Part shown: piece after piece, positions 31,514-35,392 of the stretch
How positions within the stretch are numbered: position 1 is the first letter of the stretch
Layout of the letters: the number at the start of each line of letters is the position of its first letter
Assembly: GCA_047601445.1 (NCBI GenBank)
Contig: JASGJH010000001.1
Span: forward strand, 3,392,001 to 3,456,000
Length of the DNA stretch: 64,000 nt
DNA from: Myxococcales bacterium
Lineage (GTDB): Bacteria; Myxococcota_A; Polyangia; Polyangiales; DASUME01
Direction: 5' to 3'
Made by a program: the position numbers and the translations under genes
Notes under the pieces: generated by a model
Seen by the model: only the letters and a program-made list of their open reading frames with translations
Databases searched by the model: none
What the model was told of the DNA's origin: nothing

Positions 31514-34500
31514 GTGATCACCATCGTCGCCGAAAAGCCCTCCGTTGCCCGCGATATCGGGCGCGTATTGGGCGCCACCCAGCGAGGCGATGGCATGCTG
31601 CGCGGCGGGGGCTATGCGGTGACCTGGGCGGTCGGCCATCTGGTCGCACTGGCCGAGCCGGAGCGGGTCGACCCACGCTGGAAGTCGTGGCGCTTCGACT
31701 ATCTCCCCATGCTGCCGGAGCAGTGGCCGCTCTACGTGGTGGAGTCCACACGCGCGCAGTTCGAGGTCGTGCGTCGCTTGATCACGGCCCCCGAGACCAC
31801 CCAGGTCGTGTGCGCCACGGACGCGGGGCGCGAAGGGGAGCTCATCTTCCGCTACATCGCCGAGCTCGCCGAGCTGCGCAAGCCGGTCAAGCGCCTGTGG
31901 ATCTCGTCGCTCACCGACGAGGCGATTCGCGCGGGCTTCGAGCGCCTGCGCGGCGGGGCCGAGTTCGACGCGCTGGCCGACGCGGCGCGCGGACGCAGCC
32001 GGGCCGACTGGCTGGTGGGGATGAACCTGTCGCGGGCCTACACCTTGAAGGCGCAGAGCCAAACCGCGTTCGGTGAGAAGAGCCAAGTGTTCTCGGTGGG
32101 GCGCGTGCAGACGCCTACCCTGGCGATGATCGTGGAGCGCGATCGCAGCATTCGGAGCTTCGTTCCCGAGGAGTATCTGGAGGTCGTGCTGTCGCTCTCG
32201 CCGATCCCCGAGGGCCAGCTGTTCGAGGCGCGCTACGTGCGCTCCCCGGAGGATCGCGAGCCCAGTCGATTGCCGGTGAAGCCCAAGCTCGAGGGACAGC
32301 TTGGCGGACGCGAAGAAGCCGAGGCGCTGTGCGCTCGCGCCCGCACGGGCGAGATCGCGGTGCAGGCGGTGGAGCGTGAGGAAAAGCGCGCTCGCCCCCA
32401 GCTCTTGTACGACCTCACGGAGCTCCAGCGGCACGCGGCGCGTCTCTATGGCTTCTCGGCCAGCCGCACGCTGGAGATCGCCCAGCGTTTGTACGAGGAG
32501 CACAAGCTACTCAGCTACCCGCGTACGGACAGTCGTCACCTCACGAGCGATGTGGCGCGCACGCTGCCGGAGATCGTGGCGGCCGTCCGCGCTCCCTACG
32601 AGGCCTTGTTCGTGGTGGACCCGGCGCAGGGCTCACTCGGCAGGCGCTTCGTGGACGACGCCCAGGTACGCGACCACCACGCCATCATTCCCACGGGTAA
32701 GCCGTGTCGCCTGGGCCAGAGTACCGACGAGTTCAAACTCTACGACCTGGTCGTGCGGCGACTGTTGGCTGCGTTCCAACCGGACTACGTCTGGGCAGTC
32801 ACGTCGGTGCGCGTCGAGGTTAGCGCGAACGCGAGTTCCAGCGACGGTGCCGCCAAGTCGGGCTCCGCGCTCTCCGAGGCCACGGTCGATCACTACCTGG
32901 CGCGCGGGACCACGGTGCTGGCCGAGGGCCACCGCCAGCTCGACGTGAAGCTACGGGGGCGCTTCGACTCAAACGCAGTCGAGACGGAGTTGCCGCCGCT
33001 TGCCGAGGGAGAAGCGTTGCGGCTCGAGCAAGCGCGCGGCGACGAAAAGCAGACTCGTCCGCCACCGCCCTTCAGCGAGGCCAGCCTGCTGACAGCCATG
33101 GAGACCGCGGGTCGGGCCCTGGACGACAAGGAACTCTCCGAAGTCATGCGTGAGCGTGGGCTCGGTACGCCAGCAACCCGCGCGGCCATCATCGAGACCT
33201 TGTTGGCCCGCAACTTCGTGGTGCGCGATCAAAAGAGCCTGCGCAGCACGGAACGCGGCGAGGCGCTGATCGAGGCGGTGCATCCGCACGTAAAGAGCGC
33301 CCAGATGACGGGCGAGTGGGAGCACAAGCTACGGCAAATCGAGCGCGGAAGCCTGCAGCTCGAGCGGTTCATGGACGAGATCGCGGACTACGTTCGCGAG
33401 GTGGTGGGCAGCGTGGGCCAGGGCATGCCTCCCACCAGCACCAGGTCGTCGAGCGCCGCGTCGCACGCGTCGGCCATGCCGCTCGCCGCACGCCCCGAAG
33501 GTCGTCCGGCTCGGGCGCGCGACGCCGATGCGGAGCCCTATCAAGCGCGGGCCCCAGGCAGCGAGCCGTACCAGGCGCGAGCGCATGGCGGCGAGTCTCC
33601 CGCAACTCGGGCACCGAGCGCAGCAGCCAGACCGCGCGCGCCCGTGGTGCCGGGCACTCCGCTCGTCGAAGTGCTCGAGCAGCGCTTTGGCTTCTCGTCT
33701 TTCCGCCCCCATCAACGCGAGATCTGCGAGCTACTGGTGGCCGGCAACGACGCGCTGTTGGTGATGCCCACGGGAGCGGGCAAGTCCCTGTGCTACCAGC
33801 TGCCGGGCGTGGCGCGCGGAGGCACCACGCTGGTGGTGAGCCCGCTCATCGCGCTGATCGAAGATCAGGTGAGCAAGTTGCGCGCTCAGGGCTTGGTGGC
33901 GGAGCGCATTCATTCGGGGTTGCCACGCGACGCCGCGCGTGAGGTTTGTCGCAACTACCTGCGGGGTGACCTGGACTTCCTCTTCATCGCGCCGGAGCGC
34001 CTGCGCGTTCCCGGCTTCACCGAATTACTCGAGAAGCGTCCGCCGGCGCTGATCGCGGTCGACGAGGCCCACTGCATCTCGCAATGGGGCCACGATTTCC
34101 GGCCAGACTATCGCATGCTGCGCGATCGCCTGCCGAGGCGCGGCGCAGGCCCGGTGGTCGCACTCACAGCCACAGCCACACCCGAAGTCCAGCGGGACAT
34201 CGTCGACCAGCTGGGCATCCCCGGCGCCGCGCGCTCCATCCATGGCTTCCGCCGGCACAACCTGGAGGTGCAGGTCGTGGAAGCATTGCCGCGGCTGCGC
34301 GAGGACCTCGCGCGCAGCGTGCTCGGGCAAGCGGGACGACTCCCCGCCATCGTGTACGCACCCACTCGGAGTCGGGCCGATGAGGTCGCCGCGGCCCTCG
34401 GACAACGCTTCCGCTGCGCCGCCTATCACGCGGGCATGGATGGCAGCGCCCGTGAGCGCGTGCTGAGTGCGTTTCTTTCGGGACAGCTGGACGTGGTCGT

Positions 34501-35392
34501 GGCCACCATCGCCTTCGGCATGGGCGTCGACAAGGCCGACGTGCGCACCGTGCTGCACATGTCGAGTCCGGGCAGCGTCGAGGGTTACTACCAGGAAATC
34601 GGCCGGGCGGGGCGCGATGGCAAGCCCTCGTTGGCATTGCTGCTCACCTCGGCCGGCGACCGCCGCACCCACGAGTTCTTTTTCGAGCGCGACTACCCGG
34701 ACACGAGTGAACTCGAGCGGGTGTACTCCAAGCTCTCGGAGTCCCCCGTCTTCAAGGGCTCCTTGGCGCGCGTGCTCAAGCTCGAGGACGAAGTGCTCGA
34801 CCGCATCCTCGACAAGCTGTGGGTGCACGGGGGCGCGCGCATCGATCACGACGACCAAATCGTGCGGGGTCATGCCGAATTCCGCCGCACCTACCCCAAG
34901 CACCGTGCGAGCCGCGCCGCCCAGATCGCGCACATGGCCCGGTACATTCACACCGAAGAGTGCCGCATGCTGGCCCTGATCCGGCACTTCGGCGACGACG
35001 AAGATCTGGGCAAGCCGTGCGGCAACTGCGATCGCTGCCGACCCGAGCGGCGCCTGTTCGCGGGCCAGGCAGCGGAGCCCCAACCGCGCCCGCGCGCGGC
35101 CCGCACCCGCGGCTCGGAGCGGCGCACGCGAGCACGCCCCAACTACGACGACGTGGCCTCGGTGGAGGCCCCCGCCAAGCTCGTGGAGGCCCTGCGCACC
35201 TTCCGGCGTGAGGAAGCTCGGGCGCGGTCCATTCCGGCCTTTCGGGTGCTCACCGATCGCGTGCTCTTTGCCCTGGCCGAGGGCTGTCCGGCGAGCGAAG
35301 CGGAGCTGTTGGAGATCCAGGGCGTGGGACCGGCCCTGGCCAAGAAGTACGGCCCACGGTTGATCGCCATCGTGCGCGAGTGCACCCGCTGA
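31514..35392 (+). CDS. topB: DNA topoisomerase III - RecQ helicase - HRDC fusion protein
   Basis: Topo IA motifs: [24 protein letters not shown], catalytic [16 protein letters not shown]. RecQ motifs: [47 protein letters not shown]…CGNCDRC. HRDC at the C-terminus. One uninterrupted frame. Confidence 0.92.
33533..33622 (+). repeat. 30-bp coding tandem repeat (2 clear + 1 degenerate copy) in the Topo-RecQ linker
   Basis: Encodes [10 protein letters not shown] / [10 protein letters not shown] / [10 protein letters not shown]. Confidence 0.7.

Follow-up and report, generated by a model that had tools for sequence, protein, structure and literature searches.

A 64,000-nucleotide stretch of DNA from a Myxococcales bacterium (GenBank assembly GCA_047601445.1, contig JASGJH010000001.1, positions 3,392,001 to 3,456,000; hereafter the window) contains, at 31514..35392 on the plus strand, a gene in which topoisomerase III (Topo III, TopB) is joined through a linker to a RecQ helicase with an HRDC domain. 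RecQ is a helicase powered by ATP hydrolysis, whereas Topo III uses a tyrosine to break one DNA strand and passes another strand or a duplex through the break. The fusion is a real, conserved and apparently unstudied single-chain version of this known partnership, with an unusual RecQ. We suggest that it probably acts as a tethered, helicase-driven strand-passage enzyme that unlinks late intermediates of replication and recombination, a reading based on its sequence.

The gene starts with GTG and forms a single open frame of 1292 amino acids with zero internal stops, while the opposite strand in the same register is interrupted by stops. The third-position G+C is 0.70-0.96 in all 50-codon blocks, including those of the linker. 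A Pfam scan gave, in order, Toprim (4-132), Topoisom_bac (151-621), DEAD (731-893), Helicase_C (944-1036), RecQ_Zn_bind (1128-1176) and HRDC (1222-1287), and the layout agrees with NCBIfam models and full-length homologues. A sequence-only reading made earlier had proposed just such a stop-free frame of 1292 residues, with TopB, RecQ and HRDC in one covalent chain and both active sites intact, and it is borne out by the frame, the Pfam order and the residue conservation given below.

The TopB core (amino acids 1-632; 31514..33409, +) scores above the NCBIfam cut-offs for TIGR01056 topB (550; cut-off 515.75) and PRK07726 (657.6; cut-off 597) and below that for TIGR01051 topA (204.7; cut-off 456.4). 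Its nearest solved structures by sequence in the PDB are Topo III chains (E 9e-95). The TOPRIM domain (31523..31909, +), located by Pfam and the homologue alignment, holds E7, K8, D103 and E107. The catalytic Tyr335 (32516..32518, +), accompanied by Arg337, is found within SYPRTDS, which aligns onto the TYPRSD motif of the solved Topo III chains. Residue conservation was counted on 115 of the best 120 of 7999 homologue matches; the other five, of which four have no HRDC and one has a large insertion, were left out. E7 and K8 are kept in 114 of these (one gap), and D103, E107, Y335 and R337 in all 115. The TOPRIM acidic residues and catalytic tyrosine claimed earlier are present as E7, D103, E107 and Tyr335, but the second Asp of the E. 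coli DPDRE motif is Gly in the fusion, which reads D103-A-G-R-E107. Since the DAGRE motif is common to fused (52 of 53 rows) and stand-alone (32 of 33) TopBs, and occurs likewise in Listeria TopB, it is a trait of the subfamily and not a sign of decay.

A Topo III-specific insertion at amino acids 530-548 (33101..33157, +) was located by alignment to Topo III chains and comparison with TopA, at what we take to be the position of the E. coli 'decatenation loop'. It is 19 amino acids long in 115/115 homologues, has a net charge of -1 to -3 in 114 of them, and aligns to the E. coli stretch with one gap. It is absent from the TopA of the host, where the corresponding stretch is 16 amino acids shorter. 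The TopB half has neither C-terminal zinc ribbons nor Toprim_Crpt repeats; the RecQ module occupies their place, and two stand-alone TopB relatives have Toprim_Crpt repeats at the position of the RecQ module. The N-terminal half is of the Topo III (TopB) type, and strand cleavage and decatenation are predicted for it from the family.

The RecQ motor (amino acids 717-1036; 33662..34621, +), delimited by Pfam and PDB alignment, contains Walker A with K757, DEAH at 850-853, an aromatic-rich loop, motif III and motif VI. Among solved structures, bacterial RecQ chains are the nearest by sequence (E 9e-90). All 115 aligned homologues keep Walker A, DEAH, motif III, the core of motif VI and the four cysteines of the zinc-binding domain (Cys1150, 1169, 1172 and 1175). 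The fusion passes the broad RecQ family model TIGR00614 recQ_fam (369; cut-off 219.8) and falls short of the equivalog model for canonical bacterial RecQ, TIGR01389 (467; cut-off 640.2). The Pfam scan of the fusion gave no match to RQC (PF09382). Only about 46 amino acids, a short basic spacer recognised in the homologue alignment (35039..35176, +), separate the last zinc cysteine from the HRDC domain (amino acids 1222-1287; 35177..35374, +; Pfam E 6e-18).

The alignment to E. coli RecQ stops after the motor and restarts at the zinc cysteines, and the distance from G1036 to C1150 is nearly constant, 112-118 amino acids in 115/115 homologues. An AlphaFold2 model of amino acids 1036-1185, built from a 61-row alignment, has a mean predicted local distance difference test score (pLDDT) of 90. 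In this model the zinc-binding domain (amino acids 1047-1175; 34652..35038, +) is split by a clade-specific insert (amino acids about 1061-1119; 34694..34870, +) that is predicted to form a winged helix, with three helices and a two-strand wing (pLDDT 95-98), between two long helices of the zinc domain (1047-1060 and 1123-1145). RDYP and LxKLWxHGG are conserved in the insert. A structural search with the insert model gave winged helices as leading matches (Z 7-9), including 4wcg (Z 7.8, root-mean-square deviation 1.6, 59 aligned residues) and DprA 3maj (Z 7.4, root-mean-square deviation 2.0, 60 aligned residues); these middling Z values are evidence of fold and not of function. Foldseek with the same model gave nothing at E 0.001 or better, and its top rows were winged-helix regulators. 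A single-sequence fold of the RecQ half had a pLDDT of 36 and was discarded.

An extra block of about 100 amino acids follows the zinc domain in 59 of the 115 homologues and is absent in the host lineage; its likeness to the winged-helix insert is weak (HHalign 52%, E 1.5e-4). We considered whether the insert or this block is a displaced RQC, but the HHalign probabilities, 0.3% and 1.9%, do not show it. The RecQ half is non-canonical, without RQC and with a predicted winged helix inside the zinc domain, and apparently represents an undescribed subfamily with a relocated winged helix. The earlier description of an intact Walker A, DEAH, aromatic loop, motif VI, zinc cysteines and HRDC was correct, but it had overlooked both the missing RQC and the inserted winged helix. 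With a profile of the insert region, 215 representatives were found at E 1e-30 or better. Among the best 150 of these matches, 38 reach the start of the helicase. In 23 of the 38 the helicase is preceded by a long N-terminal region, identified as TopB in 20 proteins, as kinase-like in 2 and as low-complexity sequence in 1. In the two kinase-type proteins (P0383 and P0396), the insert-type RecQ is fused behind a Ser/Thr-kinase-like domain, and by motif reading the repeats of P0383 resemble Sel1 repeats.

The two halves are connected by the low-complexity linker of about 80 amino acids that the sequence-only reading had described (about amino acids 633-716; 33410..33661, +), placed by span length and column conservation over the 115 homologues. 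Its composition is biased towards Pro, Ala, Gly, Ser and Arg, and its sequence is not conserved: the span from V630 to L721 varies from 30 to 151 amino acids, with a median of 82, and the mean column conservation is 0.21, compared with 0.69 for the topoisomerase and 0.77 for the helicase. We looked for a stop or frameshift in the linker, and no linker stop is present in any of the 115 homologues. One related protein, P0092, has a zeta-toxin-like nucleotide kinase domain inserted into the linker of the fusion.

Full-length homologues with both domains were found in independent genomes, in other myxobacteria and beyond. All 119 others of the best 120 of 7999 matches carry both halves, in a selection that by design favours full-length forms. 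The carriers include Myxococcota, Acidobacteriota, an Oligoflexus bin and Ca. Contendobacter, and among cultured species Myxococcus guangdongensis, Pyxidicoccus xibeiensis and Polyangium jinanense. The architecture is already present in databases: the label 'DNA topoisomerase III/RecQ family ATP-dependent DNA helicase' is attached to a homologue by one source, and both domains also occur together in ESM Atlas clusters with 70 to 322 members. The relatives do not keep the halves as two genes; in each of the nine genomes of the same genus the frame is either fused or interrupted by a contig break, and none has a stop between the halves. A protein labelled Polyangiales is identical to the product of one same-genus locus, which places the host with that order. 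Of 150 further genomes, sampled evenly from the phylum, 79 gave a TopB-like match and 20 have the fusion, 19 of them with a fused frame holding both halves and 1 with a fused frame cut by a contig end. A damaged copy was also seen (L193, G144:C121), in which part of the topoisomerase is missing and the RecQ half is just 27% identical to the query. A mobile origin was considered and rejected, as none of the 5000 best plasmid-record matches covers 80% of the query. Two supplementary files of an M. xanthus proteomics study, the part of that source covered here, contain no topoisomerase entry. In P0207, a TopB of the fusion clade is joined to an ArsA/ParA-like ATPase, according to the source annotation.

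Separate trees of the two halves, which had been proposed as a check, do not conflict and indicate that the halves are co-inherited. A quick IQ-TREE analysis of TopB with 86 rows placed the 53 fused rows on one side of a branch, with a Shimodaira-Hasegawa-like approximate likelihood ratio test (SH-aLRT) support of 98, and the 33 stand-alone rows on the other. A single origin of the fusion is not proven by this tree, because the stand-alone rows all come from the phylum of the host. The RecQ tree has 96 rows, including 24 that were retained from 53 other RecQs. All rows with the insert, 55 fused and 17 unfused, group in a single clade (98), and the unfused rows are scattered inside it. The two trees have 51 fused rows in common; over these, 15 starred splits agree exactly and 0 conflict, with a patristic correlation of r = 0.86. 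Three of the 17 unfused rows are unsafe: two begin at a contig edge, and the third, L029, was rejected as a free RecQ since it is a tandem partial copy of a fused gene. The L029 locus (L029:1-13410, Polyangium jinanense) has a 5580-bp exact direct repeat with 7830-bp spacing around the partial fusion copy, which is either a tandem duplication or an assembly artefact.

We searched for TopB in 10 genomes with a free RecQ of the clade. Nine gave only TopA-like matches with ≤35% identity, and the tenth is the genome of L029; the completeness of these genomes is not given. In a search for shorter TopBs, many matches are marked partial or run into the helicase. Five TopB-only matches that we inspected end in linker or out-of-frame sequence and resemble cut or frameshifted fusions, and one is a shortened version of a 1263-residue fusion that belongs to the same cluster; this search yielded no convincing free TopB of the fusion clade. 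The dependence looks one-sided, with free RecQs of the clade but no convincing free TopB. These trees are most simply read as showing that the fusion is old, that its halves have been passed on together, and that the topoisomerase half has now and then been lost. Repeated fusion is a possible alternative, because the root of the tree is not fixed. In a record of Listeria monocytogenes (L200:2980-6929), recQ and topB lie side by side as two genes, with 23 bp between them and in the opposite order, which is an independent linkage of the two enzymes.

What would such an enzyme do? The motor, steered by the inserted winged helix and HRDC, would load on branched or gapped DNA and open single-stranded DNA beside its own tethered Topo III, which would pass strands and remove the links. 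Likely substrates would be converging forks, precatenanes, hemicatenanes, D-loops and other joints made by RecA. The tether would stand in for the adaptors of other systems, SSB in E. coli and the Sgs1 N-terminus with Rmi1 in yeast, and would act by raising the local concentration and not as part of a rigid machine. In the host, the fusion would work alongside a ParC/ParE-like enzyme and RuvC. It may also take the helicase role that RecG has for Topo III in E. coli, a possibility that arises because RecG was not found in the host. Active sites kept in 114-115 of 115 homologues speak for this proposal, and so do the variable linker, the co-inheritance of the halves, the fixed 19-residue insertion, the position of the fusion as the only TopB of the host, the one-sided dependence, the neighbouring recQ and topB genes of Listeria and the in vitro precedent in E. 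coli. The coupling of helicase and topoisomerase within the fusion is what we infer from knowledge of the families. We are doubtful of a more far-reaching version, in which this single-chain ATP-driven enzyme, with its relocated winged helix, would by itself dissolve double Holliday junctions and unlink daughter chromosomes, form a second natural helicase-type IA class after reverse gyrase, serve as the main decatenase besides gyrase in lineages with neither Topo IV nor Topo VI, and do RecG's job as partner of Topo III where RecG is missing, as it seems to be in the host.

The host genome is one contig, 98.7% complete, and the fusion is its sole TopB. It also has TopA, GyrA, RuvC and a ParC/ParE-like pair that scores just below the curated Topo IV cut-offs, as well as two other RecQs, one canonical (766 bits) and one further, both of which match RQC. 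Topo VI was not found in the host genome. RecG was not found there by two models and two RecG queries: the best match of the recG model is Mfd, the wedge model has zero matches, and RecG queries from the same order retrieve only Mfd. The host topA gene (L189:2614-5011; G000:C1 near 376600-379000) is in two frames, with the TOPRIM start out of register with the rest. This is probably a sequencing error; if the break is real, the fusion is the host's only intact type IA enzyme.

Several observations weigh against the proposed unlinking role. A 2026 study reports that the helicase with which Topo III cooperates in living E. coli is RecG and not RecQ (PMC13244152). That study also reports that a physical interaction of E. 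coli RecQ with Topo III was not seen and that the earlier genetic link was not substantiated. This result lowers the prior for a partnership in vivo, and it concerns canonical RecQ in one species. The host has other enzymes for decatenation and junction resolution, including the ParC/ParE-like pair, and the fusion is patchy and evidently dispensable, being carried by 20 of the 150 phylum genomes. The helicase half occurs without a fused topoisomerase in 14 loci; one of these is in G025, where the insert-type RecQ is free and TopB is separate and distant. In the fusion, the Topo III insertion carries acidic charge, whereas the E. coli stretch is rich in Lys and Arg. No neighbour family recurs across lineages among 1788 neighbouring frames of 50 loci, synteny being confined to the genus or family level.

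The distribution of other topoisomerases bears on the same question. With a second PF00521 match as the proxy for Topo IV, 11 of the 20 fusion genomes in the phylum sample (G144 set aside) gave no match for either a second GyrA/ParC-type gene or Topo VI. Against a link, both are also missing in 4 of 51 stand-alone-TopB genomes (a size limit removed 7 of 58) and 8 of 71 TopB-less genomes, and the 11 fusion genomes span just three of eight families. Since, in addition, there are one-contig genomes without fusion-type, Topo IV or Topo VI enzymes, the link is only a lead. The idea that the fusion replaces Topo IV or Topo VI was strong in the first 71 genomes and was weakened by the next 80; it is rejected as a rule and kept as a lead for three families. 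In a search for GyrA/ParC-type genes alone, all four Acidobacteriota fusion genomes covered showed a single such gene and the Oligoflexus bin two. The occurrence of Topo VI is largely complementary to that of a second GyrA/ParC-type gene in the phylum sample, and most genomes with one GyrA-type gene have Topo VI. A general replacement of RecG was likewise rejected, as wedge-domain matches show no pattern of co-occurrence and so speak against that part of the proposal (11 of 31 fusion, 7 of 26 stand-alone-TopB and 11 of 23 TopB-less genomes, by a model that fails to detect known RecGs among the controls).

The one-protein dissolvasome put forward by the sequence-only reading would be one special case of the unlinking role. 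The same two enzyme families with HRDC in one chain are also what would be expected of a dedicated double-Holliday-junction dissolvase, a bacterial counterpart of BLM-TOP3A-RMI. In this alternative, the junctions would be migrated together and Topo III would free the resulting hemicatenane to give non-crossovers. The extra winged helix predicted by the model could bind branched DNA, RecG, the branch-migration partner in E. coli, was not found in the host genome, and engineered yeast Top3-Sgs1 fusions have reportedly been made. However, RuvC is present in the host and the canonical RQC winged helix is missing. Furthermore, BLM is reported to be more like RecG than like E. coli RecQ in the remodelling of branched DNA (PMC13244152). 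We consider a dedicated dissolvase unlikely.

A slightly less likely alternative is that the fusion serves only co-expression or co-localisation, with RecQ targeting TopB to forks or damage, or having replaced its C-terminal DNA-binding tail, and no kinetic coupling between the two activities. The long, unconserved linker fits this idea, as do the survival of the helicase half alone in several lineages, the location of the RecQ module at the Toprim_Crpt position of two stand-alone relatives, and the same RecQ type behind a kinase-like N-terminus in 2 of the 23 long matches. However, Walker A, DEAH and motif VI, which pure targeting would not need, are kept in 115/115 homologues, and co-inheritance of the halves across phyla is tight.

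A mesophilic enzyme like reverse gyrase, which would change supercoiling in one direction at the expense of ATP, is very improbable. Reverse gyrase is the one characterised helicase-type IA fusion (PMC8185306) and comes next in a comparison of language-model features (score 0.87). However, the fusion scores only 114 with the TIGR01054 rgy model (cut-off 471.7), its topoisomerase is of the TopB type, gyrase is present in the host, and, as the sequence-only reading had noted, the Pfam order of domains is opposite to that of reverse gyrase. The free length of the linker is also a poor fit to a rigid gate-control mechanism. Finally, it is next to impossible that the gene owes its form to faulty assembly or annotation, or to two adjacent genes having recently come to be read through by chance, and this is refuted at the family level: although three long-read loci (L007, L010 and L034) have the halves in different frames, L007 and L034 also have frame breaks inside domains, which suggests sequencing errors, while the 119 other full-length homologues come from several sources, none of the nine genus relatives has a stop between the halves, and RefSeq proteins of cultured species are fused, cultured myxobacterial copies including WP_254044020.1 and WP_253978582.1.

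The proposed tethered strand-passage enzyme matters in several ways. The RecQ-Topo III partnership in bacteria is unsettled, as cooperation in vitro stands against E. coli genetics that favour RecG (PMC13244152). That several phyla keep the fusion intact speaks strongly, on genomic grounds, for a genuine partnership in some bacteria. The fusion also offers a one-gene system in which helicase-topoisomerase coupling can be dissected, by two point mutations and a cut linker, without the Rmi adaptors of the human BLM complex, and since cultured myxobacteria carry the gene, genetics are within reach. A single-chain decatenase could serve cell-free replication systems that now use Topo III and RecQ (PMC5714178).

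The upstream neighbour of the fusion gene is a divergently oriented glutathione S-transferase gene, and no promoter-like site was found near the fusion gene. Downstream, on the same strand, are a frame for a sulfatase-like membrane protein and then an HtrA-like protease (window:35380-38399); the HtrA-like protease adjoins the fusion in two same-genus genomes as well. Elsewhere in the window there are two tandem ammonium transporter (Amt) genes (window:27398-30615, +). Two abutting tandem arrays are located between nadE and the next gene (window:40106-40525), the first with four copies of a 42-nt unit containing a 24-nt palindrome and the second with about five copies of a 40-41-nt unit. Their core words are found at 53 and 45 places in the genome, and the arrays resemble elements of the repetitive extragenic palindrome/bacterial interspersed mosaic element (REP/BIME) type.

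No description of a natural TopB-RecQ fusion was found in a full-text literature search that covered few subscription papers, so that a review or a genome paper may mention it. It is not mentioned in the accessible parts of PMC12288472, PMC13760219, PMC3905885, PMC13244152, PMC5512222, PMC3000357, PMC8185306, PMC5714178 and PMC8813930. The fusion shares all motor motifs, the four zinc cysteines and HRDC with canonical bacterial RecQ (TIGR01389), but differs from it in scoring below the equivalog cut-off, in its lack of RQC and in forming a separate clade (SH-aLRT 98). Like reverse gyrase, it combines a superfamily 2-type ATPase and a type IA topoisomerase in one polypeptide (PMC8185306). However, reverse gyrase is helicase-first, tightly coupled, introduces positive supercoils and belongs to hyperthermophiles, whereas the fusion is topoisomerase-first.

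With E. coli RecQ and TopB, which act with SSB, the fusion shares the two enzyme families, the TopB core with the Topo III insertion, the RecQ motor, the zinc domain and HRDC. The E. coli enzymes are separate proteins, whereas the fusion is one chain with a DAGRE-type TopB and a RecQ without RQC. In E. coli, the ATPase and helicase activity of RecQ drives catenation by Topo III (PMC13760219), RecQ boosts the decatenation of replication products by Topo III (PMC5714178), and the two interact functionally but not physically (PMC3905885). The cooperation of separate RecQ and Topo III proteins that the sequence-only reading had cited holds for these reactions in vitro, but the link in vivo is contested for E. 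coli (PMC13244152). Yeast Sgs1 binds Top3-Rmi1 through its disordered N-terminus (PMC3905885), and eukaryotic Top3, which is without the bacterial loop, uses Rmi1 instead (PMC13244152). The Sgs1-Top3-Rmi1 and BLM-TOP3A-RMI1-RMI2 complexes are non-covalent, need Rmi1 and have demonstrated junction dissolution, whereas the fusion is covalent and is known from its reading frame. No Rmi1/Rmi2 oligonucleotide/oligosaccharide-binding fold was found in the chain and none recurs as a neighbour, the rest of the genome not having been searched. The likeness is in the way the enzymes are joined: as in these complexes a RecQ helicase is physically joined to Topo III, here covalently and in one frame, and in the complexes Topo III is held to RecQ through the disordered N-terminal region of the helicase, just where the fusion has its N-terminal topoisomerase and disordered linker.

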